A stretch of 64,000 nt of DNA, taken from positions 64,001 to 128,000 of the forward strand of contig CAVSHT010000007.1 of NCBI GenBank assembly GCA_963727895.1, written 5' to 3'. Shown here piece by piece: positions 1,998-54,440 of this stretch. The notes under the pieces are model-generated. The model was given only the letters and a program-made list of their open reading frames with translations, was not told where the DNA came from and did not search any database. Origin of the DNA: an uncultured Methanosarcinaceae archaeon (GTDB lineage: Archaea; Halobacteriota; Methanosarcinia; Methanosarcinales; Methanosarcinaceae). Numbering within the stretch: position 1 is the stretch's first letter; every line of letters begins with the position of its first letter. The position numbers and the translations under genes were made by a program.

Positions 1998-2180
1998 AAT
2001 TTTGATCCTTGCGTCTAGAAAAGTATCGTCTATTGATTCTTCAACTTCATCAAATCCACAGATATCCTTATTTAACAGAACTTCCTTCATTGCGAGAGCA
2101 TCATCTACTGCAAACCTCAGTTCTTTATCAGAATTTGGATAATTATTTCCAATAACGAGCCCGACTCTTTTATCAGTCAT
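1998..2180 (-). pseudogene. N-terminal half of a caspase-family (peptidase C14) gene, cut by IS1
   Basis: MTDKRVGLVIGNNY...LRFAVDDALAMKEVL is the typical C14 N-terminus; it ends at the IS1 right end and continues in frame at 54440. Confidence 0.9.
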
Positions 2181-2197
2181 GATGTTAATATATTGTA

Positions 2198-2626
2198 TTA
2201 TTTTTCAGAATGCATGAAAGAATTCAAGCCTTCACAGATTGATAACTGCGGGTTTTCTTCAAAGAATTCAGACAATTTTGTAAGAGACAGTTTAGAAATC
2301 TCAATCGTGCTTCCGTCAGAGCATTTCATTTCAATTTCAGCAGTTGGCCTGTATTCGAGCCATGTTTTCATTGCTTCAATAATTATCTCTGCAAAAACTT
2401 TTCCTGTGATGCCAAAAACTGCAAGTGTACTGAAAACAGTTGATATATCGGATCTTTCTTCTTCAGAAGAATTAGACGTTAAAGGTTCTATCCAACCATC
2501 AGGTAGATTCTTGCAAATTGAACCGTAAAACTGACAGCACTGTTCCTGCCAGTGTTCCGAAGAAACATCAATGTCTCCAGACGTAAGTACAATAGAAAAA
2601 TTAGACTTATCAAGAACTTGCTGTAT
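2198..2626 (-). CDS. EACC1-like (effector-associated constant component 1) small membrane protein; start codon appears mutated to ATA
   Basis: Open frame of 142 codons missing from the ORF track: IQQVLDKSNFSIVLTSGD...STVFSTLAVFGITGKVFAEIIIEAMKTWLEYRPTAEIEMKCSDGSTIEISKLS...; GGTGGT RBS just upstream of ATA; stops 17 bp before the caspase ATG. Confidence 0.7.
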   Translation of the reverse strand: MQQVLDKSNFSIVLTSGDIDVSSEHWQEQCCQFYGSICKNLPDGWIEPLTSNSSEEERSDISTVFSTLAVFGITGKVFAEIIIEAMKTWLEYRPTAEIEMKCSDGSTIEISKLSLTKLSEFFEENPQLSICEGLNSFMHSEK

Positions 2627-2804
2627 ACTACCACCAACGATTTTACAATCGAAAATTACACTATCGAAAACTTATATTTCTTGAGAGAATATATGGTTTA
2701 CGATATTTATTAAATCTTTATTTACTAAACAAAAATATTCAAGACAAAATATCAACTAGCTACTAATAAAAGCTTAAAAAAGAAGGAAATTACGATTCCT
2801 TTAA

Positions 2805-3710
2805 TTACAGTTCCCTTAATAAGCGAAATCCAAGGTTGGCGAAACAACTTCCAGATTCACGCTTAAAGCGACTAGCTGAACGGCAGAATTCCATATCGCA
2901 GAGCCAGCTACATCCACGAGAAATCCGATAGAAGCTATTTCCTTCATCCCATGCACTCCCATCCAAAGGAGCTCCATTGTAGTTGTTATGCCACACATCT
3001 TGTACCCATTCCCATACATTTCCATGAATGTCATAAAGTCCCCAGGGATTTGGTTTCTTACAGCCAATTACGTGAGTTTCATCACCTGAATTTCCAGCAT
3101 GCCAGACGTAGTCATTGAGTTTTGACGTGTCCTCACCAAAGAAACATCTTGTTTGTGTGCCTGCCCGGCAGGCGTATTCCCATTCAGCTTCGGAAGGTAA
3201 GCGGTATTTGTCAGTTCCTTCTTTCTCATTCAACTTTGTGATAAACTCCTGAACATCTTTCCAGGAAATCATCTCAACAGGGTGATCTTCACCTTTGCAA
3301 TACGAAGGATTGTTACCCATTATCTTTTTCCACTGTCTTTGCGTGACAGCTGATCTGCCTAGATAAAAATAGTTTTGAATTGTTACATTGTGGACCGGAA
3401 ATTCAGCATCTGATCTGTCCATCTCTTCAGAAGGTGATCCCATCTCAAATTTCCCAGCAGGAATAAGTACAAATTTCATACCTGTAAAAGGACTAGTAAA
3501 CGTTTCAATATCGTCAGGATTATCATCCATTGAAATAATAGATGACTCTTCAGTTTCTTCTTTTTTCAGGTAGTATCGAATTGTATTAATATAACTCTTA
3601 ATGCCAAATTTATTTCCCAAAAGCCCCACCCCTAAGATATTATAATTGTCTCCTAGTTTAGACATATCACTTATTATATTTAGACAGTATATGTAAAATT
3701 TTATTTTCAA
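2805..3710 (-). CDS. FGE-sulfatase / C-type lectin-fold domain protein (true start may be the ATG at 3530)
   Basis: MKFVLIPAGKFEMGS, YRLPSEAEWEYACRAG, PNPWGLYDIHGNVWEWVQD, RG.SW...CRSA.R...LGFRL. Confidence 0.9.
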   Translation of the reverse strand: MKIKFYIYCLNIISDMSKLGDNYNILGVGLLGNKFGIKSYINTIRYYLKKEETEESSIISMDDNPDDIETFTSPFTGMKFVLIPAGKFEMGSPSEEMDRSDAEFPVHNVTIQNYFYLGRSAVTQRQWKKIMGNNPSYCKGEDHPVEMISWKDVQEFITKLNEKEGTDKYRLPSEAEWEYACRAGTQTRCFFGEDTSKLNDYVWHAGNSGDETHVIGCKKPNPWGLYDIHGNVWEWVQDVWHNNYNGAPLDGSAWDEGNSFYRISRGCSWLCDMEFCRSASRFKRESGSCFANLGFRLLREL

Positions 3711-3846
3711 TCCTTACTTGTAATTTTTGGTTCCAGTTTTATTAAGAATCTATAACTCTATAGCATTTATCGTTGTTCAGTTAAAATTAAACTTTACTGC
3801 AATAAAAGACCTTGACAATAAGTATCTATTTCATTGTAATAAAAAG

Positions 3847-4592
3847 GGCATTGTTACTTAACTAGATCTAGTTCTTTATTTCTGTATTTCATCAATAGAA
3901 TAACGAGTACTTTAGCATTTCAAGACTCTTCGTATAACACTTTGTCTTTCTTCTCAATCTTGCTAAAAAGTGCCTCAATATGCTGTTATATCCCTTAACA
4001 GTATACGTTTTTGCTTTGGATTGAGTATGGATCTTTTCTGGAAGAAACTCTGCATATGCTCTCCAGTGGTCTGTCATCACTTCTCCAATCTCTTTTTTCT
4101 TCAATTTTTCCCAGAGTAGTTTTCCAGTTTCCGTTCCTCTGATGCCAAAAGAGCAGTTGATGAACTTTTTTCCAACTCTATCAACAGCAATCCAGATCCA
4201 GCAATATTTTTTTTGTTACCGATGTAAGTGTGCATCTCATCCATTTCAACAATAGATATCTCATTTTCGCTTTTTAGAGCCTCTAACTCTTGACCAAATT
4301 TCTTTATCCATTTTTGGACAGAAACGTGACTTACCCCTAAAAACCGCCCTATTGAGCGAAAGCCCAATCCTTCAAGATAGAGTTGTAAAGCCTGTCTTTT
4401 AACAGAAGCGGAAAAAGCAGTTGATTTTAGCTCTACTGTATAGTTATAGCCACAATCATGGATCATGGCATTTGTAGCGTTGACGCCCACCAACTATACC
4501 GTTCTTTTTGTGACTGGAACTATTGCATCTGGGGCGGTTCATGAAGAAATATACTTTCTAATAGTATATAACTATGTTTAAGTATCAATGTC
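3847..4592 (-). mobile_element. IS1-family element, copy 2
   Basis: Terminal IRs; 8-bp TSD ATAAAAAG (3839-3846 / 4593-4600); internal 7-bp duplication ATCATGG disrupts insA. Confidence 0.95.
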
Positions 4593-4715
4593 ATAAAAAG
4601 AATTACTTGAACTCAAACTAATTGTTATACGTTTTTAAAAAAACTCATATAACCAAAAGTAAAATATGAGATTGATTTATCTTAGGAAAATAACCAAACC
4701 TCATACTCAATCACT

Positions 4716-4945
4716 GATCAAAATCAGTGAATCAAAATATGATCAATCCATAATACCAAAATCCTGATTTAAGTTACTAAACTAAATCCAAGATAAAAGT
4801 CGTTATAATAGATCACGATTTAAATCATTAGATCAAAATCAGTGAATCAAAATATGATCAATCCATAATACCAAAATCCTGATTTAAGTTACTAAACTAA
4901 ATCCAAGATAAAAGTCGTTATAATAGATCACGATTTAAATCATTA
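4716..4945. repeat. Perfect 115-bp tandem duplication upstream of priS
   Basis: GATCAAAATCAGTG...TAAATCATTA at 4716-4830 and 4831-4945. Confidence 0.9.
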
Positions 4946-5044
4946 AACTGAAACTCGATCAAAATAAGTTCCTATTAGAATACTTTTGTTGAAATTCAAT
5001 CAAATTTCTAAATTAAGATCCAAAACTTCAAAAGCCCTATATCC

Positions 5045-6295
5045 ATGGACAATCGAACCGCCCGTTTTTTGAAAAGTCGCTTCCAAAAATATTACAAAAA
5101 TGCCGAAATAGGTCTCCCTGACCATCTGCCTAACAGAGAATGGGCTTTTATTTTCTATGACGATATGCCTGAAAAAATGATGCATAGGCACAAGGCCTTT
5201 GGCTCACCCGGAGAAGCTCTTGATTACCTTTACGGCATGGCTCCTGCTCACGTTTATAATTCAACTGCTTATTATGAATATCCTGATGCTAGAAAGATGA
5301 ATGAGAAGAACTGGCTTGGAGCAGAATTGATTTTTGACCTGGATGCCGATCACCTTCCAGATGCTCCGAAGAATTATGCAGATATGCTTGAGCTTGTAAA
5401 AAAAGAGGCTTTCAAACTAATGGATTTTCTGTTAGATGATTTTGGATTCTTGGAGCAAGAAATCGAACTGGTGTTTTCCGGGGGAAGAGGATATCATTTT
5501 CATATTCATAATCCAAAAGTTTTGGCACTTGGGAGCGCCGAAAGAAGAGAAATCGTAAATTATATCAGCGGAAGAGATATGGAAGTTAAGTATCTATTCA
5601 AAAAAGTTCCCATGAGTGGAGATGTAGGGACGGGTTCTACTGGTTTTTATGATAAAGTAAGGAACGTTCCACTAAAATGGGAAATCAGGGATTTCGATAG
5701 TGGATGGGGAAAAAGATTTGCAAATTACTTAGTTGAATATCTAAAAACAGAGATTTTTACTAAAAAGTACAAAAAAGATATGTTTAACGAATTAAAGATA
5801 GATTTAGAATTGGGCAGTAGTTCGATAAAAACATTGATAAAATTAGCATCCAATGAAAATGCCTTAAATGATATATTGACACGAGGACGCTTAGATTTTC
5901 CCGGAAAAGATTTTAAGAGGGTTTCTGAATATATTATGAGACAATCCATTGAAAAATCCGGTATCAACTTTGGAGCCAGTGTTGACGAACCTGTAACTGC
6001 AGACATTAAACGCTTGATAAGAGTACCGGGTTCATTGCATGGCGGATCAGGAATGATGGTTAAGAAACTTGCTTTATCTGAATTAGAAAAGTTTGATCCG
6101 CTTACTGATGCCGTTGTCTTTGGTGAAAGGTCAGTAAAAATAACAGTCTCAAAACCTTTTTCGATACAATTAAAGGGCAAGGATTTAAGTGTAGAAGAAG
6201 GCATACAGGAAGTTTCTGAGTATGCGGCAGTGTATCTAATTTGCAGAGGTGTTGCGGAGTATGGATATAGAAAAAATCAGCCAAATATTGCTTAA
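5045..6295 (+). CDS. priS: DNA primase catalytic small subunit
   Basis: REWAF, ELIFDLDAD, VFSGGRGYH, VDEPVTADIKRLIRVPGSLH motifs. Confidence 0.95.
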   Translation: MDNRTARFLKSRFQKYYKNAEIGLPDHLPNREWAFIFYDDMPEKMMHRHKAFGSPGEALDYLYGMAPAHVYNSTAYYEYPDARKMNEKNWLGAELIFDLDADHLPDAPKNYADMLELVKKEAFKLMDFLLDDFGFLEQEIELVFSGGRGYHFHIHNPKVLALGSAERREIVNYISGRDMEVKYLFKKVPMSGDVGTGSTGFYDKVRNVPLKWEIRDFDSGWGKRFANYLVEYLKTEIFTKKYKKDMFNELKIDLELGSSSIKTLIKLASNENALNDILTRGRLDFPGKDFKRVSEYIMRQSIEKSGINFGASVDEPVTADIKRLIRVPGSLHGGSGMMVKKLALSELEKFDPLTDAVVFGERSVKITVSKPFSIQLKGKDLSVEEGIQEVSEYAAVYLICRGVAEYGYRKNQPNIA

Positions 6296-6986
6296 GGAAG
6301 AAAAACAGAAATTAAAGACGATTCCAGCTGATTTTTATCAAGAATCTGAAAAATATATCCGGGAGCTTGAAGAGGATATAAAGAAAATCAACAATTCCCG
6401 TTCTACTGAATTTAAGATTCTCCGTGACGAGCATGAAGGAGCTCTTTCAGCCCTTGAAACCATCTTCATGAAGCGGATAGGAAAAGTTATTGAAATGGCA
6501 ACATTTCAGTCTCATGCGGATAAACCTATTTCAAAGGATATCGAAAAGCTGCTTCCTGCTGAAAAAAAACTTTATGACCTTGTATTGGAAGGAATTAAAG
6601 CCGCAAAAACAGAATTATTAGGTCCTATTCTATATCCGGATTCCAAAAATATTGCAGTCTGGCCTGAAATTGCAACAGCGGAAAAGGGTTTTGCTGATTC
6701 AAGAAAAGAAACTGAGGCTAAAGAATCTGGGATTCCCTTTATTACAAATGGAGCGGAATCAAAAGTAGAGTTGGACAAAAAGCATATAAATGAGGAATAC
6801 GTTGTTGTTCGAATACTGAAGGATCTGCCGACCTTCACAGGCGCAGATGGTCGAAATTATACCGTTAGTGCCGAAGACGTCGTTGTTTTGCCGCAGCTTA
6901 ATGCTACAGGGCTGGTAAAACGAAACGCAACTAAACTTATTGCAGAACAGGAATCCGGAAAAGACTCATTTCCCGAAAAAAATTAA
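6261..6986 (+). CDS. GINS complex subunit (Gins51/Gins15-type)
   Basis: Overlaps the priS end; C-terminal B-domain VVVRILKDLPTFTGADGRNY...EDVVVLP. Confidence 0.8.
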   Translation: MDIEKISQILLKEEKQKLKTIPADFYQESEKYIRELEEDIKKINNSRSTEFKILRDEHEGALSALETIFMKRIGKVIEMATFQSHADKPISKDIEKLLPAEKKLYDLVLEGIKAAKTELLGPILYPDSKNIAVWPEIATAEKGFADSRKETEAKESGIPFITNGAESKVELDKKHINEEYVVVRILKDLPTFTGADGRNYTVSAEDVVVLPQLNATGLVKRNATKLIAEQESGKDSFPEKN

Positions 6987-7153
6987 TAGCTTAATTAATT
7001 TCCTGAGATTTACGGCTTATTTTAGCTTGAAAAAAAGAAGGCAGATTTTTAGGAACACAATAAATACGAACTAAGGCGAGAAAGCGTATCAGTTAATAGT
7101 ATGAGTATATATATTTGTAACTATATCTGTGTAGCTTACCTTGTTAATGTGCG

Positions 7154-7183
7154 CAAGCTTTTTAAAAAAGCTTGAGCAAAAAC
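7154..7183. repeat. Palindromic dispersed-repeat unit (same family as the 48.9-kb array)
   Basis: CAAGCTTTTT-A-AAAAAGCTTG perfect 10-bp inverted repeat followed by AGCAAAAAC. Confidence 0.55.
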
Positions 7184-7420
7184 TGATAATCTAATCTTTG
7201 ACCTCGATAGAAGGATACAAATCATGATATCGAAATATTAAGAGGTAAGAAATCTCAAGTTCATCAAATCAAAGGCTTTCCAAATATGATCTTCCCAGGA
7301 TCAAAACGCCATACATTACTTATATATGTAAAATGTTATGATTTAAAGTAAGCAATAGTATCTTTCGCAAAGGCGAGATAAGGTAAAATTGCAATACAAA
7401 TAACCATTAAAAAGGTGTAA

Positions 7421-7897
<477 letters not shown>

Positions 7898-7969
7898 TCG
7901 GATTGTTAAGAGCACTTTACAGCATTAGAGTAATAAGAAATAAAAAAGTAATATTAAGAAGTGGTGCGA

Positions 7970-8776
7970 ATGGGAAACGATAACTGGCCCGAAGTCGGAG
8001 AGTTTGTTGTATGTACTGTAAAGACCGTGACGGATTTCGGAGCCTATGTCGAGCTTGAGGAATTCGGAGGAAGGGAAGGTTTTATCCACATATCCGAAAT
8101 TAAAGCAGGCTGGGTCAAGTACGTCAGGGACTACGTAAGGGAAGGGCAGAAAATAGTCTGCAAGGTTCTTAATGTGGACCCTTCCCGCGGCCACATAGAC
8201 CTTTCATTGAAAGACGTAAACGATCACCAGCGGCGCGCTAAAATCCAGGACTGGAAAAATGAGCAAAAGGCTACCAAGTGGCTCCAGTTCGTGGCTGAAG
8301 AAACGAATGCCGATGAAAGTGACCTGCAAGATTTACACGAAAAACTCGTTGAAGAGTTTGGAAGTGCATATTCCGCCTTTGAAGAAGCTGCTATTGAAGG
8401 GGAGAAACCCTTCAAAGGGATTAAAGTCAATAAAAAGTACTTAAAGAGCATAATCAAAATCGCAGGCGAAAATATCAAACTGCCTTTTGTAGACATCGCA
8501 GGCTATGTAGATCTGACCTGTAACCTTCCAAACGGTATAGAAGTTATAAGGCAGGCTCTCAGTGCTGCAAATTCTATGGATGAAGTTGATGGAAAAGATA
8601 TCAGGCTCGAAATAAGTTATACTGGGGCGCCAAGATATCGGATTAAGGTAATTGCCCCAGATTATAAGAAAGCCGAATCAGTCCTGAAAAAATCCGCTCA
8701 GACAGCAGTCGATACAATTGCTAAACTTGGTGGACATGGGATCTTTAAGCGGCATATCGAATCAGCAAAGGCGTGA
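7970..8776 (+). CDS. eif2a: Translation initiation factor aIF2 alpha subunit
   Basis: S1 domain WPEVGEFVV...EGFIHISEI, GHIDLSLK, GAPRYRI. Confidence 0.95.
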   Translation: MGNDNWPEVGEFVVCTVKTVTDFGAYVELEEFGGREGFIHISEIKAGWVKYVRDYVREGQKIVCKVLNVDPSRGHIDLSLKDVNDHQRRAKIQDWKNEQKATKWLQFVAEETNADESDLQDLHEKLVEEFGSAYSAFEEAAIEGEKPFKGIKVNKKYLKSIIKIAGENIKLPFVDIAGYVDLTCNLPNGIEVIRQALSAANSMDEVDGKDIRLEISYTGAPRYRIKVIAPDYKKAESVLKKSAQTAVDTIAKLGGHGIFKRHIESAKA

Positions 8777-8782
8777 TACCCT

Positions 8783-8938: not shown

Positions 8939-8947
8939 GGAATTGTT

Positions 8948-9721: not shown

Positions 9722-9788
9722 TAGATAATAACTGGATTATTAAAAACGAAGCTCTAAAATTAGAAGAGCTTCTAATAAAGGGAATGAA

Positions 9789-11396: not shown

Positions 11397-12135
11397 GGCA
11401 TTGTTACTTAACTATATCTAGTTCTTTATTTCTGTATTTCATCAATAGAATAACCGAGTACTTTAGCATTTCAAGACTCTTCGTATAACACTTTGTCTTT
11501 CTTCTCAACCTTGCCAAAAAGTGCCTCAATATGCTGTTATATCCTTCAACAGTATACGTTTCTGCTTTTGATTGAGTATGGATCTTTTCTGGAAGAAACT
11601 CTGCATATGCTCTCCAGTGATCTGTCATCACTTCTCCAATCTCTTTTTTCTTCAATTTTTCCCAGAGTAATTTTCCAGTTTCCGTTCCTCTGATGCCAAA
11701 AGAGCAGTTGATGAACTTTTTCCCAACTCTATCAACAGCAATCCAGATCCAGCAATACTTTTTTTGTTACCGATGTACGTGTGCATTTCATCCATTTCAA
11801 CAATAGATATCTCATTTTCACTTTTTAGGTCCTCTAACTCCTGACCAAATTTCTTTATCCATCTTTGGACAGAAACATGACTTACCCCTAAAAATCGTCC
11901 TATTAAGCGAAAGCCCAATCCTTCAAGATAGAGTTGTAAAGCCTGTTTTTAACAGAGGTGGAAAAAGCAGTTGATTTTAGCTCTACTGTATAGTTATATC
12001 CACAATCATGGCATTTGTAGCGTTGACGACCACCAACTATACCATTCTTTTTGTGACTGGAACTATTGCATCTGGGGCAGTTAATGAAGAAATATATGTT
12101 ATAAGCATATATATCTATTTTTTATTACCAATGCC
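11397..12135 (-). mobile_element. IS1-family element, copy 3 (degenerate)
   Basis: GGCATTG...CAATGCC ends, insA/insB remnants; flanks do not match each other. Confidence 0.95.
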
Positions 12136-12243
12136 CAATCTTTTATTGAGATTCAAGTTATAGGAATCATTATCCATCTCACGCCACTCCATGAGATACG
12201 GAATTAAACAGTTGAATTTAATCCGCCTGAAGCGCAAAATCGT

Positions 12244-18130: not shown

Positions 18131-20448
18131 CTACAATACATCATCTAACGACTCAACAAATTTATAATGTGACAATGATATTTTTGTCTCATTTATATGT
18201 TTGTCACCTGAATTTTCAAAAAAATTCTTCATCAAATATGTCATCAAAGCAACAAGTAACCCAAAAGAACCTGATACTATAAAGACTGTGTTAAGATCAA
18301 AATGTAATAGGACTATACCAAGTACTATGGGTGCAAGACTCTGACCTACATTTCTCATAGCATTGTGAATAGATAGACACACCCCCTGTAGATTCTGCAG
18401 GAGCTACATGAATTATTTGTGTGTCTATTAATGGTTGAGCAAGCCCATAACCAGCTCCGAACAGTAATATTAAGAGGATAATCATGTAAATTGAATACGC
18501 AAATGAGATAGCTATTATTGCCAGTCCGACAATTGCAAAACCAATAGCAATAATTAACATGCTTGAATGCTTACTAACCAGATTCTTCACGCAGGATATA
18601 GTAACGATGACAGCTATTCCCTCCAAAGCCAATATAAGTCCTGCTTCCCTTGCAGTATAACCAAATACACCTTCAAGCATAAAGGGCAAGTAAACAACTA
18701 CTGAAAATAATAAAAAGTAGATAGTAAAACTCAGGAATACAGTGTACATTACTCGCAAATCCTTGAGTGCTTTAAAAGCATTAAGTATTCCGTCGTGTTC
18801 ATCGTTTTCGTTCTTAACAACCCTTGTCTCTGGAAAGAAAAAGATCACAACAAAAGCAAATGGTAGAGATAATACATAGAAAAGGAATGGACAGTTCCAT
18901 TTAAAACTTGCCAGTCCCCCACCTATAGTCACCACTTTAAATAATGCGACATTTTATGTTTAAATGTATGTTTCTCCCAAAATTCATTCATTTCTTCCTT
19001 TAATGCTTCAATATTTTTAAATGATTTTATTGACGTTAAGTTTTCTCTTGTCACTTTCCAACAGTATTCTGTTGGGTTCCTATCTGGAGTAGCTGGAGGG
19101 AAAAATATTATTTTCAACCAATGCTTATTATTTTGATAAAATTCCTTTGCCTTTGCTGATCTATGCCATGTAGCTCTGTCCAGTAAAAGAAATATCCTTG
19201 CCCCTATATCTCTTTGAAACTTGATTAATGATTTTAAGTAAGAGTCTGTATTCTGTGTAATTCCTAAATCATACCAATAAAACTCTCCATTTTCAGTGTA
19301 GAATCCTCCAATATTGATTTTTGCTTTTGAACCACTTGTAAATTTAATAGGTTTTGAGCCCTTTATTGCCCAACATCTTGATCTATTTGAATCCACACAA
19401 AAATTACTTTCATCATGGGTAACGAATAAATGATTAGGGTTTAGTAATCTGTTTTTTGGACTTCTCTTATGAATTATTTTTTAAGCACCTCATTTCTTCT
19501 TTTAGATTGAGGTCGACATGTGATTTTTCTCAACCCTAAATTTTTTAAAATTTGTCTCATTCTTGATTTGGAATAAGATACTCCAAATTTTTCCTTGACA
19601 AATTGAACTGCATCTTTTGTTTGCCAACCACGAGAATAAACATCATCTGTTGGTATAGGTTCTAAAAATGTCTCTCTTAACTCAGATAATTGTTCTGCAG
19701 TTAAAAAAGACTTGATTCCTCGACCAGGTTTACATTTAAGGCTAAACAAACCGTCGGTTTCAGCTCGTTTTATCCAGCGATGAACAGTTGAACGGTGAAC
19801 TGAAAAATCGTCGGCAACTTTAGCGGGACTCAAACCATTTTTGACCAATAATAAGGCTTGAAGTTTAATCTGCTCGTTTTTGTTACAGGAATTTATGATA
19901 GCTGTAGAAATATCAAAAGTTGTAAACATTTCCAAACTCATATATAAAATTATATACTAATTTCAGGTATAAGAATGTTGCAGTAAATACAGAGGTAACT
20001 ATATAAGAGGACCAAATATTGAGCCAATAGCAAGAGCCGTACTAATCTTGCTTGTGGCACTTAATCTTTCATGATCATTGTATACATCCCTTATGACCAG
20101 CATAGTCAAAGACAGCATTCCTGCTGCTCCAATACCCTGTATTAACCTCAAGATAATAAGTAACTTCAGACTAGAAGTGAAATAACTTACAAGTCCCATT
20201 AGACCGTAAATCACAAGGCAGGGAACAAGTAGCTTCTTACGGTTCATACGGTCTATGAAATTTCCAATCATCAGAGTAAAAATAGCCGTTGAGATAGTGT
20301 ACCCCGATATCAACAATGCTACTTCCTGGAATGTTGTCTGAAGGGGTTTCACCATATCTGGTAATGCTGGTGCTAAAATAGCACCTCCAGCCATTGCAAA
20401 AAATGCAGTAATACAAAGCATTAGAAGGTGAATGTTTTTGAATTTCAT
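18131..20448 (-). pseudogene. MFS transporter interrupted by IS630 and frameshifted near its 3' end
   Basis: N-part 19999-20448 (GNFIDRMNRKK, RLIQGIG) and C-part rejoin as ...GPLI-GGGL once the IS and one TA are removed; frameshift near 18380. Confidence 0.88.
18926..20001 (-). mobile_element. IS630-family element (HTH ORF 19474-19941 plus DDE ORF 18929-19396)
   Basis: TA target duplication; imperfect IRs TAGTCACCACT / TAGTTACCTCT; LDRATWH...PDRNPTEYCW DDE motifs. Confidence 0.9.
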
Positions 20449-27958: not shown

Positions 27959-27962
27959 CTTT

Positions 27963-30843: not shown

Positions 30844-32953
30844 ATGACTGAAACCGAAAGCAAGTGGGATGAAAAGCTAAAAAGGTTTTTTAAAGATTAT
30901 TACTGGAACGAAATTCTTCAGCTTGCAAATGAATATCCAGATCAGCGAAGCCTTTGTGTGGATTTTACGGATATAGAGAAATTTGACAGAGAGCTTTCAA
31001 GAGAGTTTCTGGATCACCCTGGAGAACTTATCCCGGCTGCCGAAATTGCCCTGAAAGAAATCGACCTTCCTGTTGAGAAAAGTCTTGATCAAGCTCATGT
31101 AAGGATAATTAAAATCCCGAACAGAATATCCATAAGGGAACTCAGAAGCAAGCATCTTACTAAGTTTATTGCATTAGAAGGTATGATACGGAAAGCGACT
31201 GAAGTAAGACCAAGAATCACTAAAGCTGCTTTTCAGTGCCTCAGGTGCGGGCATGTGACCATTGTTGAGCAAAACAGCTTCAAATTTGAAGAACCCTTTG
31301 CAGGCTGTGAAGAAGAAACCTGTGGGAAGAAGGGACCTTTCAAAGTGATCATTGAGGAATCCACCTTTACAGATGCCCAGAAGCTTCAGATTCAGGAATC
31401 ACCCGAAAACCTCAAAGGAGGTTCACAGCCCCAGAGCCTTGAGGTCGATTCAGAAGACGATCTAGCAGGGAATATTACCCCTGGAGATCGAGTCATAATT
31501 AACGGAATCCTTAGGTCAAGACAGCGCACCCTGAAAGACGGGAAATCGACCTTCTATGACCTTGTGCTTGAAGCAAATTCTATAGAGCAACTGGACAAAG
31601 ATTACGACGAACTTGAAATAACTGCTGAAGACGAAGAACAGATTCTTGAGCTTTCCCATGACCCTGAAATCTACAACAAAATTATCGGTTCGGTTGCGCC
31701 GTCTATCTATGGGTATGAAGACATAAAAGAAGCCCTTGCTCTTCAATTGTTTTCTGGCGTTGTAAAAAATCTTCCTGACGGTTCCAGAATTAGGGGAGAT
31801 ATTCATATTATGCTTGTAGGAGACCCTGGAATTGCAAAATCCCAGCTCCTTCGCTATGTAGTAAAACTTTCTCCCAGAGGTGTTTTTACTTCAGGGCGTA
31901 GTGCATCTGCAAGCGGTTTGACTGCGGCTGCTGTAAAAGACGACCTTAACGATGGTAGATGGACAATCGAGGGAGGAGCCCTTGTCATGGCTGATATGGG
32001 AGTCGCTGCAGTTGATGAAATGGACAAAATGAAAACGGAAGATAAAAGCGCCCTTCACGAGGCAATGGAGCAGCAGACCATAAGTATTGCCAAGGCTGGG
32101 ATTATTGCTACGCTTAAATCCCGCTGTGCTCTTTTAGGGGCTGCAAATCCTGAAATATGGGCGTTTTGACCGGTATGAAGGCCTTGCAGAACAAATAAAT
32201 ATGCCACCTGCCTTACTTTCCCGTTTTGACCTTATATTCGTTTTGCTTGACACACCTGACCATAATCTGGACACTAAAATTGCTAACCATATTCTACAGT
32301 CTCATTATGCAGGAGAACTCTTTGAGCAGCGGGAAAAGCTTCCGGGATCACATATTACGGAAGAGTTTGTCGAAGCTGAAATGGAAGTGATAGAACCTGT
32401 CATACAGCCAGAAATCATGAGAAAATACGTTGCATATGCCCGGAAAAATGTATTTCCTATTATGGAGGAAGATGCAAGAGCTTACCTTATAAATTTCTAC
32501 ACAAATTTACGAAAAACCGGAGAGAGTAAAAACACCCCAGTGCCCGTAACTGCCAGGCAACTCGAAGCACTTGTTCGTCTCTCTGAAGCAAGCTCAAGAG
32601 TCCGGTTAAGCAATACAGTCAAGCTTGAAGATGCAAAAAGAACTATCAGAATCGTTATGAATTGCCTGAAAAATGTAGGCGTTGACCCCGATACTGGAGT
32701 CCTTGATGCAGATATACTTGCATCTGGCACAAGTATGAGTCAGAGAAACAAAATAAAAATCCTGAGAGATTTAATTAAAAAGATATGTGAAAGGCATCCC
32801 GGAAATGAAGGAGCCCCGTTAGAAGAAGTATATACAGAAGCTGAAAACGAAAATGGTATCGATAAAGCTCATGCAGAAGATTTAATTAAAAAGATGGTAA
32901 CCAAAGGAGACCTCTTTAAACCAAACTTATCTCATATAAAAGTAATTAAATAA
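30844..32953 (+). CDS. mcm: Replicative helicase MCM, with an apparent +1 frameshift at about 32152
   Basis: Zinc finger CLRC...C, Walker A GDPGIAKS, VDEMDKM, ALLSRFDL; AANP-KYGRFD is broken by one extra base (CCT G AAA TAT GGG CGT). Confidence 0.93.
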
Positions 32954-47313: not shown

Positions 47314-48630
47314 TTACTTCTTGAGGGTTATTTTCTTAATCCCTTTTTTTAAAAGAATCTGGCATAAAACAACCCCAAAAATTCCTGTAAGTATCTCGAA
47401 ACCAGGAGTTTTTGCGGAAGTTTTGGTTCCAGCTTCTCCTTTAGGAATAGTGTTATTGTCTTTGGAATCTTCAACCTTAGAATTAGTATTATTAAGTGCC
47501 ATTTTTGTTACATTTGTTTCTTTTTCAAGGGTCTTATTTCAGTGGCTCCTATAATAGAATTATCTCCTATGTATGTTTCCTATTGTAATATCGGTTGCTG
47601 GGTATATAACATAGCCTTCTGGAGAAGTGCTGCCTTTTCCTTCATCTGAGGTCTGGAAATACCATGAATCGGTAAAGTAATTCTTAACATCTTTATCAAG
47701 ATCTAAAGTAATAGATTTTGAGTTTTTCAGGACAATTTCATTTTCTGAAGCTTCTTTTACCTCAAAACCCTGATAATCGTCACCGGTTTTTATCTTCATC
47801 ACGTTATCTTTGTCAATTAGCCAGGTGTACTTGAAAACTGCAAAAGACTCATTAGCACTCGTGAATACAGAGTCAACGTATGTAGTAAAGTAAATCTGGT
47901 CTGTTTTATCACCAATGTCTGCAGTTGCAGCAAACGTTTTATCATTAACTGTCCCATTCGCATCAACAATTGCAGATTCATATTCTTTTCCGTTTTTATA
48001 CAGTGAGAACCAGACCTTTTTACCATCTACATCAACCTGATGAACTGTAAGAGAATAGTTTTTACCAAGATCCCAAGATTCTCCGGTCTTTAATACTTTT
48101 TTCTCTCCGGAAACTTGAGAGATCACCAGGTTTGTAAGCTGAGTAGCATCGCCTCCAACTGCGATATATGGTTTTCCGAACCATCCAAGTTTATAGTAGA
48201 ACATTTCTCCAAGTTTTGAAGGAGTTGTTTTGGGATTTAGTTCAAGATCGGAAATAAGTTCATATTTGAAGGATAAAGGAAGGGTAGAATATACGAGCTC
48301 ATCTTCGCCTATTACATGGTTTCCAGGATGTTCTTTTCCAAGTTCATCTTGCCCATCTTTTTCTACATATTGAAGGCGTTCCCCAGTCCAGTTTTCAGAA
48401 GCTATGATGTTTTTATTCTGGTTTACAGGATAAAAAAAGCCACCAAAAGTAGTAGCGTTCCAGCTAAAACCATCAGGTGAAGTTTCATTAGTGTCGAAGG
48501 AAATTCCAGAAATAGCTGGAGCTGAACCTGGAGCTGCAAATCCATATGGTACTAGCATCAGACAAACTGTGAGCGAAGCAAACAGTAAAAGTAAAGTTTT
48601 GTGATTATTGGGTTTCATACAAAGTATCAC
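47314..48630 (-). pseudogene. S-layer-domain protein with PGF-CTERM anchor, frameshifted before the anchor
   Basis: WNATTFGGFFY and VHQVDVDGKKVWFSLYKNG S-layer repeat; TPGFE-TM-KK tail lies in a separate ORF, 47314-47502. Confidence 0.75.
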
Positions 48631-48940
48631 TTATTTGTATTTGATATCGCACATACAAACATGATATAATGAAATATATGAATAAATATTATAATTTATA
48701 AATTAAAATGTAACAACACATAAATCCAAATAGTTAATAAGTTTTACTAATTTGAATTAAAAAGCAAAAATAATAAGATCTTTTACATAAAACTAGAATA
48801 TAAAAAATTATCAGCTTATCAACCAGAGCCAACAAGAATTGGAAATTAGGAATAAAGGTAAAAATCAATAAAAAAGTTTGTAGATTGAAAATATAGGCTC
48901 AATTAGGATTAACCTTTCACCCTGAACCGAAGCAGATCTG

Positions 48941-49053
48941 CAACCCTTTTCCAAAAAGACTTGGCCACAAACCTTTTGAGAAAAGGCTTGACCGCAAACC
49001 TTTTGAGAAAAGGCTTGACCGCAAACCTTTTGAGAAAAGGTTTGATCGAAAAC
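48941..49053. repeat. Tandem array of 4 x 27-bp hairpin units
   Basis: CAAACCTTTTGAGAAAAGGCTTGACCG repeated head to tail with no spacers; each unit has a CCTTTT/AAAAGG stem. Confidence 0.88.
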
Positions 49054-49138
49054 CCTGGCAACGTTTGGATTTAATAATCTTATCCCCAAACCCTATCGGC
49101 GTGATCAACCGGCGCAACGGTTGTGCTTGACCTAAAAA

Positions 49139-50191
49139 TTATCCTCTTACTTTGAACCGTAGCAGTGCTGCGACTCCACCCAACTTATGGAGCTTTTCTC
49201 CGGGTTCAAAGTCCGTGCTGAAAACAACAACCTTCCCCTGAGCTTGCTCGACTTCCATGAGGAGTTTATCAATATCCTCTCCTTTTTCCCGTCCTTCACG
49301 CAATGTTTCGTCGGCAACAAGCAGGGTTTCGACAGCCCCGAAATTGAGAGCATTCTTAACATCTGCAAGACCATAGGCAGCCTTTCCGTCCATTGAAATC
49401 TCACGAATTAAGTCCTCCATCAAGGATGATTCGCGGGCTATACGAGATTCCTGCATAATCCTGTCCACTGCACCTCTTCGCAGAACTTCTTGAAAACCGG
49501 ACATTCCTATCATGGAGGTATCTTCGATCAGAGCTTTTGAAGCCATAGCCGGTTCGAGTTCCTGAAAATATTTCACAAAATCTTCTTTAGTAAATCCAGG
49601 TCCTGCAATAACTATAGACGCTTCTTCAGGAACTGCATGTTTGAGCTGTTCTACAACTTCTCTGAAAAACTCATTTCTCAAGCCAGTTTCTCGCTTTCCT
49701 GAGGATTGTCGGATATGAGAATATATCTCTATTCCGTAGTGATGCACAAAACCAATATCTGCATCTCCTTCCTCTATTGCGACCATAACGACTTTTGGGC
49801 GTTTTGAAGCTTCTTCAGCATCCTTAATTCGCTGGAACTGGTCATTTTTCCAGTGTTCTTTAATGATAGATATATTGGTTCCGATTTCTACATTGAGAGT
49901 ATGAAAAGAACCCACATCCATTCCGTGTTCTATCATTCCATGTATCCGTAGCCGGTTAGCAAATTTATGAAATTCAATATCGTCAACTCTTATTCCTAAT
50001 CTAACCTTTACTTTCTCAACTTTTTCAGGGCGGATTTTATCACTTGCACTATCAGCTTTTCTTTTGGTAACTGAAAAAATCAGATCCCCTTTTTCGACTA
50101 TATATTTAAGGTGCCAGAGATCGTCGAGGGTTTCGGCAGTTACTGAAATTTCTCCCTCTCTTCCTTTAAGGGAACGATTTGTAACTCTCAT
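49139..50191 (-). CDS. pelA: mRNA surveillance protein pelota
   Basis: ETLDDLWHL, HTLNVE, IAGPGF, AAYG, LGGVAALLRF. Confidence 0.95.
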   Translation of the reverse strand: MRVTNRSLKGREGEISVTAETLDDLWHLKYIVEKGDLIFSVTKRKADSASDKIRPEKVEKVKVRLGIRVDDIEFHKFANRLRIHGMIEHGMDVGSFHTLNVEIGTNISIIKEHWKNDQFQRIKDAEEASKRPKVVMVAIEEGDADIGFVHHYGIEIYSHIRQSSGKRETGLRNEFFREVVEQLKHAVPEEASIVIAGPGFTKEDFVKYFQELEPAMASKALIEDTSMIGMSGFQEVLRRGAVDRIMQESRIARESSLMEDLIREISMDGKAAYGLADVKNALNFGAVETLLVADETLREGREKGEDIDKLLMEVEQAQGKVVVFSTDFEPGEKLHKLGGVAALLRFKVRG

Positions 50192-50224
50192 GCCTTTTTC
50201 CTTCCGTTCATTTCAATTTCTTCT

Positions 50225-52522
50225 TTACTTACTTCTATATTCATTTTCAATTTCTTCGTTATCTTCAGGTTCGTTCTCGATTTCTAGAACCTCATGCTCC
50301 TCACTTTCGTGTTCCTCACCCTCGTGTTCTTCAATATTCTCTCCCTTTCGTTTTGGCTTCTGGTCCTTTAAGTCTGATTCACCTGGTGGAATCATCATAG
50401 CTATTTGATCAGGAGATGCAATCTGCTTTACGAAACGTGGGTCACTGAGTTCATCAGCATAAATTCTGTAGATCTTTTTTGAAATGTCGTTCTGATTAAA
50501 AGCTCCAGGTACTATTTCGAGAATATAATCTCCATGCTTCCTAACAGCAGATGCTGGTCCGCCTATAACTCTTGTTTCACCTTTGAGTTCAAGCCCAACC
50601 GCAATGCCAAGAGGAATATCCTTAAAGTAATTGCGTTCTCCACGGATAATGAAAGCACCTTTTTTCACATACTCTCCTGATTCAGGGGTCTTACTGACCT
50701 GCTCAGATTTGACCCAGTAACAGTCTCCGCTGAAATGCCCGGCTTTCCAGAGGCTTGAATAAGAAACTGCAAATTGTGCAGCTTCCTGTAAGGTAGATTC
50801 AGGAACGTCTTTTCCTCCGGTTTTGATAACTGTGAGAGGGGCTCCTGGAGTCTGAGTATGGAAGACCAGATCTCTCTTTTCCATATATTTTTTGAAAATC
50901 TCCTCATTTGTGTCTGCATCCCTGCCTCCTACAACAAAGAAGTCATCTGAGGATACAAACCACCTGAATCTATCATACCAGTGCTTTTTCCGGGATGCAT
51001 GAAGCTTCTTTCCTGCCTTTGAAGCCTTTGCCACAGCTTTTTTTTCCATAGCTTTTCTGGTATCTTCGATAGCTTTGATAGCGCCGTCTTTTTTCTTACT
51101 AAATTTTTTCACTTTTTCATAATATTCCTGAGCATTCTGAGGTACTGTTTTTCGGATGTCAATATTAACCCTCTTTCCTTCAATATCTACAGTTATAGTT
51201 CCGGTTTTAGGGTCGATGTTTGTGATCTTTTGTGCATCAGGCATAGTCTTCTTAGCCTGCTTCAGAATGGACCGGATCTCGTCCCAGGAATATCCTTTAG
51301 CCCTTGCACCATTGAGTACGGAAAGAAGTTCTTCAATAACCTGATAATTTGCGTAAACTGTTTCGGCAAGGGTGTTATTTTTTTGGATTTCTTTTTCGAA
51401 CTTTGAAAGGCTTTCTTCCTGCTGGAGAAGTCGTCTTTCGTAGACTCCAAGAGTTTTTTCTTTTTTCTGAGCCGCTTTTACTTCTTCAACCTTTTCAAGC
51501 GATTTTTTCCCAAAAAACTCATCAAGTGCCGTGTTAAATGAATCAAAATATTCTTTTTCAAATTCTGAATAGCGAATAAGATCAAAAGGTAATACATCGA
51601 AGGTTTCCAGCTTTCCATTAATTTCCTTTTTCACATGCTGGGGCTTGAACTTAGGAGTCTCGCCTTCAACTTCTATTTCTGGTTTAAGTTCAGGTTCAAG
51701 TTTAGCCTCGGTTGCAGTTTTAATTTCAGTTTCAGGTTTAATTCCAGTTTCGGCTTTTGCTTCTTTTTCTACTTCTTCTACTTCTGAGGAACCTTTTTCA
51801 CCGGCTTCTGCCATCAAAAGCGGGGAAAAAAGATCGTGCATGGCATTACAAAGTCTTGATGCATCCTCTTCAGTTGCTTCCTTTGAAGGCTTTGATTTGT
51901 CAATTCCTGCCCTGGCACAGATTTCTTCTGCCAGAACTCCACCCAGATTGAACCTTGTGGCTACAGTCCGCACAATATCAGCTGTAGATATAGAAAACTC
52001 TTTCATAAGGTCCCAAACTTGAACTTTAAGAGGACTGATCTGTGCCTCAGGAAGTTCGTAAATTTCTCCACTCCGAAGCCGCCTGTCTCTCATGGTTACA
52101 GGATTCATAGGCAGGATAATCCTGTTTTCCGAATCTACAATAAGTATATTCCCAGGGGCGAAAAGCTCCACAATAAGAGTACTCTTCACTCCCCCTCTCT
52201 CAATCCCTATCTTTACTATCCTGTCAAAATCGTGCTGCTCCACAAATGTGATCCTTCCCCCCAGCAGGTATTTTCTAAGCAGCATTGGAAAAGCCTGGGG
52301 GAGCGTTGGGCTTGCCCTTAGATATTTACTTAAATGAATGCGCTTCCCAGCCTCAATAACCAGGTTGTCCCTGCCCTGGTGAAAAACGTAAAGGTTGATG
52401 CGAATCTCCTCGTTCGCGGGCTGATATATCTTCCCTATCTTCGCATCAATTATGGATTTTGGCCCTGCTGACAGCTCGGCAACAACTGCAGCAACGTCGG
52501 CGCTCGACATATCCTGTTTCAT
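50225..52522 (-). CDS. rqcH: Ribosome quality-control protein Rqc2/NEMF (RqcH)
   Basis: MSSADV, FPMLLRKYL, FDRI, WYDRFRWF, GGRDADTNE, SKTPESGEY. Confidence 0.92.
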   Translation of the reverse strand: MKQDMSSADVAAVVAELSAGPKSIIDAKIGKIYQPANEEIRINLYVFHQGRDNLVIEAGKRIHLSKYLRASPTLPQAFPMLLRKYLLGGRITFVEQHDFDRIVKIGIERGGVKSTLIVELFAPGNILIVDSENRIILPMNPVTMRDRRLRSGEIYELPEAQISPLKVQVWDLMKEFSISTADIVRTVATRFNLGGVLAEEICARAGIDKSKPSKEATEEDASRLCNAMHDLFSPLLMAEAGEKGSSEVEEVEKEAKAETGIKPETEIKTATEAKLEPELKPEIEVEGETPKFKPQHVKKEINGKLETFDVLPFDLIRYSEFEKEYFDSFNTALDEFFGKKSLEKVEEVKAAQKKEKTLGVYERRLLQQEESLSKFEKEIQKNNTLAETVYANYQVIEELLSVLNGARAKGYSWDEIRSILKQAKKTMPDAQKITNIDPKTGTITVDIEGKRVNIDIRKTVPQNAQEYYEKVKKFSKKKDGAIKAIEDTRKAMEKKAVAKASKAGKKLHASRKKHWYDRFRWFVSSDDFFVVGGRDADTNEEIFKKYMEKRDLVFHTQTPGAPLTVIKTGGKDVPESTLQEAAQFAVSYSSLWKAGHFSGDCYWVKSEQVSKTPESGEYVKKGAFIIRGERNYFKDIPLGIAVGLELKGETRVIGGPASAVRKHGDYILEIVPGAFNQNDISKKIYRIYADELSDPRFVKQIASPDQIAMMIPPGESDLKDQKPKRKGENIEEHEGEEHESEEHEVLEIENEPEDNEEIENEYRSK

Positions 52523-52686
52523 GAAGTGGATATAATAGAGGCTTTTGGTATAAGCATTACTGAAGAATTTAATGAAATTAGATGTAAAGTGAAGCGGCTC
52601 AGTACTCATGTTTGGAGGCTCCGCACGCTTCGAGCTTCATCATGGCTATTTTCTATATACAATGTAAGTGGTAAAATAAAAAGTGG

Positions 52687-54440
52687 TTACAGTTCCTTCA
52701 ATAGACGGAAACCAACGTAGCTGTCTCGATCGCCGACGCCGCGTCCAACGCGAAAAGCCGACCGGCAGTATCCGGCACTATTGCCACAACTGCCACCCCT
52801 AACCACACGGAAGGAGCTGTTTCCATCTTCCCAAGCACGACCATCAAAAGGAGCTCCTTTTTTATAATTATCATGCCACCTGTCCTGAACCCATTCCTAA
52901 ACATTACCATGCATGTCAAAAAGACCCAAGCGATTTGGTTTTTCGGGTCAACTGGATGAGTTCTACCACCTGAGTTTGTATCTCAATATGCGTAATCCTC
53001 AATACATATATCGTCACTAAAATAATAATTTGTAGTTGTTCCTGCACGACATGAATACTCCCATTCAGCTTCAGAAGGAAGACGGTACTTGTCGTTGCCT
53101 TCCATTTCATTGATCATTTTGAGGAATTCTTGGATTTGATTCCAAGAAATATATTCTACAGGTAGAGACTCGCCTTTGAAATTTGAAGGATTATTTTCCG
53201 TAACCTTCTCCCACTGTTTTTGAGTGAATGGATATTTACTAATATAGAAAGAGTTTCTTATTTTTACTTTGTGAACTGGACCTTCGTCTTCATGGGACCA
53301 TCCCTGCTTTTCCAAAAGCGACCCCATCATAAATTTCTCCGGCTGGGATAAGTACGAATTCCATATCTGTAGAAGGGCTGATGAAGGTTTTTGGAATTTC
53401 GTGTTTGTTGGTGTCTTCAGGAATCTCGATAGTCTCATATTTCGAGTTCCTTAAATTATAAATATTAACATTTTCCTTTTCATGTTGACTTCCAGAACTT
53501 ACGTATATTCCTTTAAGTTGCTGTATAGATTCAATGTAGTTTTCGTGAGAAAGGTCTCCTTTCAGAAAAGAAGTAAGTAAACCATGTACAGTTTCATCAA
53601 CAGGCTCAAGGGTACTTTGAGCCTCATAATATTTTCTCAGGACTGTCTGGGACTCATTAAGTATTGAGGGAGAAAATTTGTATTTAAGGTATTTCTCGAA
53701 TAAATCTCTCTTTTTAAAAGCATATTCGTTTTCTCTAATTTAAAGAGGGTTTTTTCCAATGAAAAATGGTCCTTCTATGCTTCCTTCCTTTTTTGGAGAC
53801 TGGGAACAACTCTCAGTTGTCTTTTCAAAAGCATAGTCGTACAAATCGTCAATAGAGATTTTACCTTCACCTCTTTTACCAGCTTGACCTTTCTCCAATC
53901 CTTCTATCAAATAGTAAGTGAAGATTCCATGTCCTAACTTTTCCTCTTCTTTTGCAGTTGGAGAACCAGTCAATCCGGTTGAAGTAAGAATGATTGTTCC
54001 TGAACCGGAATGTTTTTTCAAAGCTTCCATCACATCAGAAACATCTCCATTTGTATTCGGTTAAGATACGATCTATAAAAAATGTGTTATATTTGTTGCC
54101 ATTTCTGTAAACCTATAAATGTAAATCGAGATGCATAGATTATTGCAGTAGTCATTATAACGTTAACAGATTCCTTAACCGAATACAAATGGAAACATCT
54201 CTAATTCCGGCGACACCACTATAGCAACAATCAAGAACGATAATAACAGACTTAAGTGTTGGATATTTCATGCACCTGTTAATGTAATCAAAATTTAACG
54301 AGGTTGCCAGAGGACAATCTTCTCTAAAATCCTTGAATAGCAAACGCAGTCCATTGTCGAGATGTTTTTTCCCATGGCCTGAGAAGTAAATGAAAACAAG
54401 ATCGTCATGATTCGCATTTTTCAGTATTTTTTCAATTTTG
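52687..54440 (-). pseudogene. C-terminal part of a caspase (C14)-linker-FGE/CLec fusion gene; carries a MITE insertion, stops and frameshifts
   Basis: Catalytic motifs YFSGHG and LDCCYSG; HGIFTYYLIEGL; then MEFVLIPAG, YRLPSEAEWEYSCRAG, DMHGNV.EWVQD, RGGS...CRSA...GFRLLKEL. Confidence 0.9.
54048..54191. mobile_element. 144-bp MITE with IS4/ISH8-like ends inserted in the caspase gene
   Basis: Perfect 18-bp IRs CATTTGTATTCGGTTAAG; 10-bp TSD GAAACATCTC; excision restores GIRDVSDVMEA in frame. Confidence 0.92.

Follow-up and report, generated by a model that had tools for sequence, protein, structure and literature searches.

A probable remnant of an EACC1-caspase module at a conserved chromosomal site in a Methanosarcinaceae archaeon

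The two-gene conflict system formed by EACC1 and a caspase was described as System 4 by Kaur, Burroughs, Iyer & Aravind (2020, eLife, PMC7159879). EACC1 is characterized by a conserved hydrophobic helix, a patch of small residues or glycines and flanking short alpha+beta extensions, and the few archaeal occurrences of the systems reported in that study include Methanosarcina mazei (PMC7159879). According to a later paper (Evans, 2025, 10.1101/2025.11.14.688446), EACC1 is cut by a caspase domain, which separates an autoinhibitory N-terminal part from a C-terminal part that forms pores, and Asp49 is proposed as the P1 residue (the residue after which the protease cuts) of the bacterial protein studied there. 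The same source reports that a bacterial EACC1-caspase fused to Avs12 was triggered by phage tail connector proteins in toxicity assays based on co-expression in Escherichia coli. It also reports EACC1 fusions to DnaK-like chaperones and suggests roles in stress response. Here we analyzed a stretch of 64,000 nucleotides from an uncultured Methanosarcinaceae archaeon (assembly GCA_963727895.1, contig CAVSHT010000007.1, positions 64,001 to 128,000; hereafter the window), in which a small open reading frame (ORF) precedes a caspase gene that is now split into distant pieces. The locus is best explained as the remnant of a two-gene EACC1-caspase module of the type described in bacteria, located at a conserved site between rqc2 and priS in a genome of the Methanosarcina type; we give this interpretation a probability of roughly 0.78. 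The anatomy, homology, synteny and lesions of the locus are shown below, and the features are listed in Table 1.

The 5' piece of the caspase gene encodes 61 residues (MTDKRVGLVIGNNYP…DARIKI), and after codon 61 the gene resumes in frame at 54433. The catalytic core piece holds the His motif SGHG and the Cys motif DCCYSG. The heptamer AATTTTG occurs at 1998-2004, adjoining the right end of an insertion sequence (IS) (…CAATACC, 1991-1997), and again at 54434-54440, just before the left end of another IS copy at 54441 (GGCATTGG…). Removal of one AATTTTG copy joins …ARIKI in frame to EKILKNAN…, and the intact orthologues read the same sequence across this junction (…DARIKIEKILKNAN…). The break is the insertion site of an IS1-family element with the duplicated target AATTTTG. 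The in-frame joining of 1998-2180 to the region of 54440 that had been proposed in the original prediction therefore agrees with the intact genes. The 5' piece is 90-92% identical to the N-termini encoded by the related loci L011-L014 and the core piece 85-94% identical to the same orthologues, on whose genes the two pieces map end to end. Because both pieces are about 90% identical to the same contiguous orthologues, they represent one gene and not halves of different paralogs. Contig C9 carries the one other caspase paralogue of this genome, which was also considered as the source of the 5' piece and ruled out, as it begins at about residue 73 and is 42% identical.

Table 1. Coordinates of the module, its fragments and the associated mobile elements, numbered from the first base of the window.
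Feature	Position	Strand	Remarks
IS1-family copy A	1259..1997	+	transposase frame broken; right end adjoins caspase 5' piece
Caspase gene 5' piece, codons 1-61	1998..2180	-	ATG at 2180; Peptidase_C14 profile positions 2-35
EACC1-like gene, 142 codons + TAA stop	2198..2626 (coding 2201-2626)	-	frame open
Stand-alone FGE-sulfatase (C-type-lectin-like fold) gene, intact	2805..3710	-	Pfam E 1.7e-51
IS1-family copy C	3847..4592	-	simple insertion between FGE gene and priS
IS1-family copy D	11397..12136	-	far end of 9.4-kb block beginning with caspase 5' piece
Decayed caspase 3' part: caspase-domain end + helical linker + FGE-sulfatase	52687..54047	-	tblastn with orthologues
Miniature inverted-repeat transposable element (MITE), 144 bp, terminal inverted repeats	54048..54191	.	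10-bp target duplication
Caspase catalytic core piece, codons 62 to ~141	54192..54440	-	Peptidase_C14 profile positions 55-128 (match 54191-54439)
IS1-family copy B	54441..55180	+	left end adjoins caspase 3' part; DDE_Tnp_IS1 on its ORF

Homologues of the small ORF were searched for in 40 other genomes, 24 from the same genus and 16 from other genera of the order, and were found in 10 of the former and none of the latter. Outside the window's genome there were 15 matches, and up to 20 kb was fetched around 10 of them. The omitted matches were G015:C312, G009:C105, G009:C140 and G001:C173 (short contigs or partial matches) and one more inside L014; G015 was later examined as L005. A caspase gene lies directly downstream of the small ORF in nine of the ten fetched loci and the first 12 caspase codons are left in the tenth, which bears out the predicted linkage of the small frame to caspases elsewhere. 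Full-length caspase genes encode 589 aa in L014 and 598 aa in L013 and consist of a caspase domain, a helical linker and an FGE-sulfatase domain, in keeping with the ancestral gene of about 590 aa with the same three parts that the original prediction had reconstructed. The check it had proposed for intact operons between priS and rqc2 was positive: two further genomes of the genus, those of L013 and L014, have such an operon (FGE, small ORF, caspase-FGE) there. The same ancestral operon is found in L005 as far as that locus runs.

Decay of the caspase gene has occurred repeatedly. Among the six closest loci (window, L011, L012, L013, L014 and L018) the gene is intact in L013 and L014 and broken in the other four. 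In L011 an insertion of about 3 kb interrupts the gene at codon 126, the L012 gene has seven stops in frame and its FGE part contains a shifted stretch, and just 12 codons are left in L018. All six loci retain an open frame for the small ORF.

The best caspase model for all homologues was NCBIfam NF047832 ('caspase, EACC1-associated type', cut-off 140 bits). The paralogue in L015 passes with 151 bits; L017 scored 120.8, L013 110.6 and L014 104.7 bits, and the window pieces scored 62.6 (core piece, profile positions 62-136) and 25.7 bits. Profile positions 146-207 match further into the decayed part, at 53740-54033. The catalytic dyad, H81 and C130/C131, is invariant in an alignment of eight homologues, and an Asp stands two residues ahead of the catalytic Cys (DCC). 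Three Methanosarcina proteins are already named 'caspase, EACC1-associated type' in UniRef, while the sources name the window's orthologue clade 'SUMF1/EgtB/PvdO family nonheme iron enzyme' or 'serine/threonine kinase'.

The C-terminal module varied. A hand count of 116 database homologues of the constant part gave FGE-sulfatase in 59; the other modules included TPR, PKD, beta-propeller, S-layer-type, HEAT, TIR and SIR2_2+CHAT. The architectures in the fetched loci were FGE alone or a transmembrane (TM) helix followed by FGE, PKD or a YVTN propeller, and several caspase paralogues combine a coiled coil with a TM helix and extracellular domains. The window-type caspase has no TM helix, and its FGE domain is thus cytoplasmic. 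About 72 N-terminal codons of the caspase-FGE paralogue on contig C9 (C9:108420-110400) were lost at an IS1 copy, and its FGE domain contains an internal deletion. With one small-protein query, no EACC1 match was found beside it or elsewhere in the genome. Since the C9 copy is cut by IS1 and the window copy is broken, both caspase genes of this genome are dead.

The small ORF ends 18 bp before the caspase gene (stop at 2198, caspase ATG at 2180). It contains no ATG, GTG or TTG before codon 86. The start position (2624-2626) is occupied by ATA, preceded by GGTGGT, and the same codon is ATA in L011, L013 and L014, while seven relatives start with MQ/ME… at ATG or GTG and the closer database homologues begin MQQVLDK. 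Gene callers shorten the ATA-start copies to 104-136 aa. Because two of the four ATA genomes keep an intact caspase partner, ATA may be a genuine non-canonical start, with GGTGGT as a Shine-Dalgarno-like element. The ratio of nonsynonymous to synonymous substitution rates (dN/dS) against orthologues was about 0.2, a value that mostly reflects the time before caspase loss. The EACC1-like gene and the first 90 caspase bases are covered, with an identity of about 95%, by contigs from two metatranscriptome libraries of anaerobic digesters (X15 and X16; 2092-2647 and 2092-2659), and the neighbouring intergenic bins (2721-2954) are uncovered. These contigs come from relatives and cannot prove transcription; they hint weakly at transcription of the gene in a relative. 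In L014, at 2484-2615 and downstream of its intact caspase-FGE gene, a fragment similar to the first 44 residues of the small protein (41% identity) may be the remnant of a second module.

The cut-off of the Pfam EACC1 family (PF19953, gathering score 23.6 bits) is missed by the window's small protein, and EACC1 membership was therefore argued from transitive and profile-profile evidence. Among 11 archaeal members, no other family appeared below its threshold as often as PF19953 (4 of 11, best E 0.024). A profile built from these 11 members gave 61 matches at E<=1e-3 against 1.84 billion representatives. Pfam scanning of 54 of the 61, after omission of seven with 80 aa or fewer, listed EACC1 at E<=0.1 in 20, and four pass the gathering score (26.4, 25.1, 25.3 and 25.3 bits). 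Comparison of the archaeal alignment with 12 bridging proteins by hhalign gave a probability of 99.87% (E 8e-32, 118 columns); as the bridging proteins were found with the archaeal profile, the independent argument lies in their own Pfam scores. Both alignments have the same motif order, W.E.C..LY … G.R … small-residue hydrophobic segment … K.WL..RP.AE(I/V)..K.PDG, and the hydrophobic segment carries a small-residue patch (…AVFGITGKVF…) as in the description of EACC1 (Kaur et al., 2020). In a language-model search EACC1 clusters ranked at the top (score 0.92) and accounted for 26 of 30 matches. The original prediction that frame 2198-2626 has EACC1-like homologs is upheld by these searches, and on sequence comparison the small ORF is a divergent EACC1. 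A total of 133 archaeal homologues were detected at E<=0.01; among the 120 matches listed, all archaeal partners are 'hypothetical protein' without a precomputed Pfam domain.

The small ORF had been taken for a single-TM protein, which is not what the structure model indicates. The AlphaFold2 monomer (predicted local distance difference test score 85, predicted template-modelling score 0.79) is a soluble alpha+beta fold of two alpha+beta halves: an N-terminal beta-alpha-beta unit, a low-confidence loop at residues 52-61, a strand at 62-71, a helix at 75-92, two strands and two helices. The segment …FSTLAVFGITGKVFAEII…, which is conserved in the archaeal alignment, forms a strand and a helix and no free TM helix in the model. 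An Arg or Lys is conserved in the 52-61 loop in the archaeal and bridging alignments. Foldseek comparison of the model with the PDB returned nothing at E<=0.001, just weak ferredoxin-like alpha+beta rows. PADLOC gave no family for the small proteins apart from one chance AbiEi row (E 0.068).

An unrelated conserved neighbour, for example a regulator or an antitoxin with a chance likeness to EACC1, would account for small proteins that fall below the curated cut-offs. A complex prediction for the L014 caspase domain (residues 1-245) and its small protein, made without controls, scored 0.00 and counts neither way. Such a neighbour would hardly reach 99.87% in hhalign over 118 columns, share the motif order of the bridging family, draw EACC1 clusters first in an independent embedding search and stand in the gene order with a caspase known from EACC1 systems. 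We give this explanation almost no credence.

The stand-alone FGE-sulfatase gene expected upstream on the same strand is present (Table 1), and alignments with PDB entries identified PvdO (5hha, E 2.7e-35) as its best solved relative, followed by TvpA (2y3c, 7.4e-27) and formylglycine-generating enzyme (FGE; 1y1e and others, about 1e-20). In formylglycine-generating enzyme a pair of active-site cysteines in the C-terminal segment is catalytic. The stand-alone protein has a Cys-x4-Cys motif aligned to the two human FGE cysteines, which is kept in all five orthologues (the window and four others), and the caspase-fused FGE domains keep just the second cysteine. Because the first is absent, the fused domain is probably not a formylglycine-generating enzyme. 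For the stand-alone protein, the cysteine pair is odd in a strictly anaerobic methanogen, should the enzyme depend on O2.

Identity among six close homologues is 87-97% in the caspase domain and 37-48% in the last ~50 residues of the FGE domain, with the scaffold residues RGG, CRSA.R and GFRLL kept. The FGE tail is thus the most variable part of the protein, and 'variable sensor' seems a fair description of it on these alignments. The localized divergence over a kept scaffold, the resemblance of the domain to TvpA and the mention of EACC1 proteases linked to diversity-generating retroelements (DGRs) by Evans (2025) would suit diversification by a DGR, as in many bacterial targets with a C-type-lectin fold. 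However, no template-like repeat of either FGE 3' end was found in the genome. A DGR-type reverse transcriptase (RT) was likewise not detected: the three RT loci of the genome are of the group II intron type (RVT_N, RVT_1, GIIM) and lie off the window's contig, and a scan of ORFs with 100 aa or more in six related loci yielded no RT. Moreover, adenine mutagenesis of AAY codons, as performed by DGRs, does not yield K, E, M, Q or W, and all of these residues are among those at the variable positions. Diversification by a DGR is therefore highly improbable, and of the original term 'hypervariable' the localized divergence of the tail stands and the DGR connection does not.

The lesions in the 3' part exceed those first noticed. 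The MITE lies exactly where it had been placed, between caspase codons ~139 and 142, with its target duplication GAAACATCTC at 54038-47 and 54192-201, and 15 further copies are present in the genome (each at least 141 of 144 bases, 89-99% identity). Removal of the MITE and one duplication copy restores the frame locally, and it does not restore the rest of the gene as had been claimed. Before the original stop (TAA 52687-89) four in-frame stops remain, TAA 53740-42, TGA 52983-85, TGA 52948-50 and TAG 52897-99, together with two frameshifts, near 53302-53336 and 52926-52962 in alignment with the intact orthologues. An FGE-sulfatase match is still recognizable on 52983-53438 (E 1.7e-19). Pyrrolysine read-through was considered for the stops and ruled out, because just one of them is TAG and frameshifts are present too. 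The caspase gene is dead, as had been concluded, with greater decay than was then stated. The linker piece at 53740-54033 is 88% identical to L005 (G015) and 56-58% to L012-L014, and the two N-terminal caspase pieces show the reverse pattern (66-72% to L005, 85-94% to L011-L014). This mosaic similarity, with a switch near codon 140, suggests recombination between alleles or paralogues within the family.

The gene order of the relatives was S-layer, pelota, rqc2(-), caspase-FGE(-), small ORF(-), FGE(-), priS(+), gins, eIF2alpha, PAC2, 457-aa ORF and fdhB(-). The window instead reads fdhB(+), IS-A, caspase 5' piece, small ORF, FGE, IS-C, priS, gins, eIF2alpha, PAC2, 446-aa ORF and IS-D(-), and then, after about 38 kb, S-layer, pelota, rqc2, caspase 3' part and IS-B. 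DDE_Tnp_IS1 was found on a copy B ORF equivalent to the broken transposase frame of copy A. Copy C has an 8-bp duplication, ATAAAAAG, at 3839-46 and 4593-4600, and two metagenome runs include contigs with its empty site (3838 joined to 4593). The left flank of copy A (1251-1258) and the flank at the right end of copy D share AAATAAAT, which points to an inversion between IS copies. We suggest that an IS1-family element inserted after codon 61 and then recombined with another copy, in inverted orientation, that had entered the DNA between the 446-aa ORF and fdhB. Recombination between IS copies would have inverted and moved the flanks and left the gene halves 52 kb apart, and the MITE, the four nonsense codons and the two frameshifts would have come afterwards. 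A simple model of two inversions was rejected, as it predicts matching D-left and B-right flanks and these differ; at least one further rearrangement event is therefore required.

Alternatively, the 52-kb separation may be an assembly artefact at near-identical IS copies, and the real gene may carry one simple IS insertion. A mis-join inside repeats would leave the same flank pattern as true recombination. The window contains seven IS copies, with 439 identical bases common to A and C, the genome is a draft of 19 contigs with a completeness of 84%, and the strain was found in no public run (the best run holds 0.49 of the sampled words). Nevertheless, copies A and B are only about 92% identical and should be resolvable, and the ancestral order is not regained by flipping a single block. 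We regard an artefact as quite improbable; in both cases the IS, the MITE, the stops and the frameshifts have inactivated the gene.

The intact module may be envisaged as follows, and we infer its activation logic, P1 residue and defence role largely by comparison with the bacterial systems. By homology, the first gene would encode an autoinhibited small protein whose C-terminal half forms pores once the loop between the halves is cut. The second encodes a protein of about 590 aa with an N-terminal C14 caspase, a conserved helical linker and a C-terminal cytoplasmic FGE-sulfatase domain, the variable tail of which is the likely ligand sensor. Binding of a ligand at the FGE domain would activate the caspase, which would cut EACC1 in its disordered loop (residues 52-61), and the pores then formed would kill the infected or stressed cell. 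Metacaspases and orthocaspases are the basis for expecting a basic P1 with an Asp of the DCC type. By this analogy, and because the Arg/Lys of the loop is conserved and an Asp precedes the catalytic Cys, we guess that P1 is basic and that the cut probably falls after the conserved Arg/Lys. Cleavage and pore formation by the archaeal pair are likewise a guess by analogy; what is seen is the low-confidence loop with its conserved basic residue. As a pseudogene, the window copy does nothing by itself, and the intact copies in sister genomes are the ones to test.

The same homology could serve a purpose other than defence. In aggregate-forming Methanosarcina the module could be a developmental or envelope-stress device for suicide or signalling, for example in the control of lysis or disaggregation, with the variable domains sensing self or environmental ligands. 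The chromosomal position, syntenic across species between housekeeping genes, would fit such a role, as would the many paralogues whose TM helix precedes extracellular domains of the PKD, YVTN-propeller or S-layer type, which are typical of surface proteins in Methanosarcina. The DnaK-like chaperone fusions and their suggested stress roles (Evans, 2025) point in the same direction. On the other hand, the bacterial Avs12-fused EACC1-caspase answers to phage tail connector proteins (Evans, 2025), TIR and SIR2-type domains occur among the archaeal caspase fusions, and patchy presence (10 of 24 genomes) with repeated decay is typical of defence genes. A non-antiviral module thus appears unlikely.

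A broader combined picture is doubtful. The locus may belong to an old, vertically kept EACC1-caspase branch of Methanosarcina and its relatives. Many of its members would work 'outside-in': an extracellular sensor (PKD, beta-propeller or FGE) would signal across the membrane by way of a TM helix, and the cytoplasmic caspase would then license a pore-former. The pro-toxin would then have stayed under purifying selection after loss of the protease in cis, with the ATA start throttling a dangerous protein. If true, this would be an archaeal 'outside-in' pathway of programmed cell death in an aggregate-forming archaeon.

Several points weigh against reading the locus as an EACC1-caspase module. 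The window's small protein scored 12.2 bits (E 0.18) on Pfam EACC1, all other archaeal members tested are also below the cut-off, and NCBIfam gave no match for the small proteins. The window's caspase orthologue group reaches 105-111 bits on NF047832, short of 140. ATA is not a canonical start, here and in three relatives, and translation is assumed. The locus is chromosomal and syntenic and lies outside any obvious defence island, and the history of rearrangement, with its differing D-left and B-right flanks, is only partly reconstructed. Nevertheless, the interpretation as a sensor-protease with EACC1 is supported, and each of the tests named beforehand (origin of the caspase halves, homology of the small frame, its linkage to caspases) spoke for it.

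What is new is an archaeal branch of EACC1 that is unannotated and sub-threshold, together with its fixed chromosomal site; the caspase side was already recognized in the genus. The novelty first claimed is reduced in that the system is published and partly characterized and its caspase is named in Methanosarcina. As far as their accessible text goes, archaeal EACC1 is unmentioned in the main texts of Kaur et al. (2020) and Evans (2025). The accessible supplement text of Kaur et al. (2020) lists organisms without the term 'EACC1', and its family tables may already include Methanosarcina. No published account of a Methanosarcina EACC1-caspase was found among the literature matches listed, although supplements may list one. 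With this finding a pore-forming death module that is licensed by a protease, and whose action in bacteria was demonstrated recently, extends to methanogenic archaea, in a domain where programmed cell death and antiviral immunity beyond CRISPR are poorly charted. It also provides a profile by which about 130 archaeal 'hypothetical' small proteins could be annotated as EACC1. The independent, repeated loss of the caspase with the pro-toxin frame still open is a natural experiment on the cost of the system.

Some other features of the window were noted. A major facilitator superfamily (MFS) transporter gene is split into an N-terminal part (20002-20448) and a C-terminal part (18300-18935) by an insertion at 18932-19941 that encodes HTH and DDE_3 transposase ORFs. 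The MCM gene at 30844-32950 was read as two adjacent ORFs (441 and 250 aa) with the break inside the P-loop domain; the cause may be a frameshift, an error in sequencing or a genuine split. Between genes upstream of priS, a 115-bp unit is perfectly duplicated in tandem at 4716-4945. Three consecutive plus-strand ORFs without a Pfam match (266, 380 and 215 aa; 55181-57921) start immediately behind IS copy B and may be a 5'-truncated or broken large gene.

Compared with the known systems, the locus resembles the bacterial EACC1-caspase pairs in its 5' small EACC1 gene followed by a constant caspase with a variable C-terminal module, in the patch of Gly or small residues and, according to Evans (2025), in two alpha+beta halves joined by a flexible loop. 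In both, some caspases carry a TM helix and extracellular domains. It differs in its archaeal host, the main texts of the two papers covering actinobacteria, some proteobacteria and Ktedonobacter, and in the archaeal EACC1, which is sub-threshold in Pfam, about 20-30 aa longer and provided with two extra C-terminal helices. Its fixed chromosomal position and the pseudogene state of the caspase partner here are further differences. NF047832 and PF19953 are the best curated models for the two components; one paralogue clade of the genus (L015) passes the former, and the window's orthologue clade does not.

The FGE-sulfatase fold is common to the fused domain, PvdO, formylglycine-generating enzyme and TvpA. 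TvpA is a DGR variable protein, and the variable C-terminal tail of the caspase-FGE protein is presumably located as the TvpA variable region is, but there is no DGR at the window locus. In contrast to formylglycine-generating enzyme, the fused domain lacks the first cysteine, while the stand-alone neighbour has both. Bacterial gasdermins with a caspase-like protease and the Pepco modules with their protease-sensor fusions, among whose linked proteases FGE domains are listed as sensors (Evans, 2025), likewise license a small pore-forming pro-toxin by a single cut; the effector of the present module differs from both in being EACC1.

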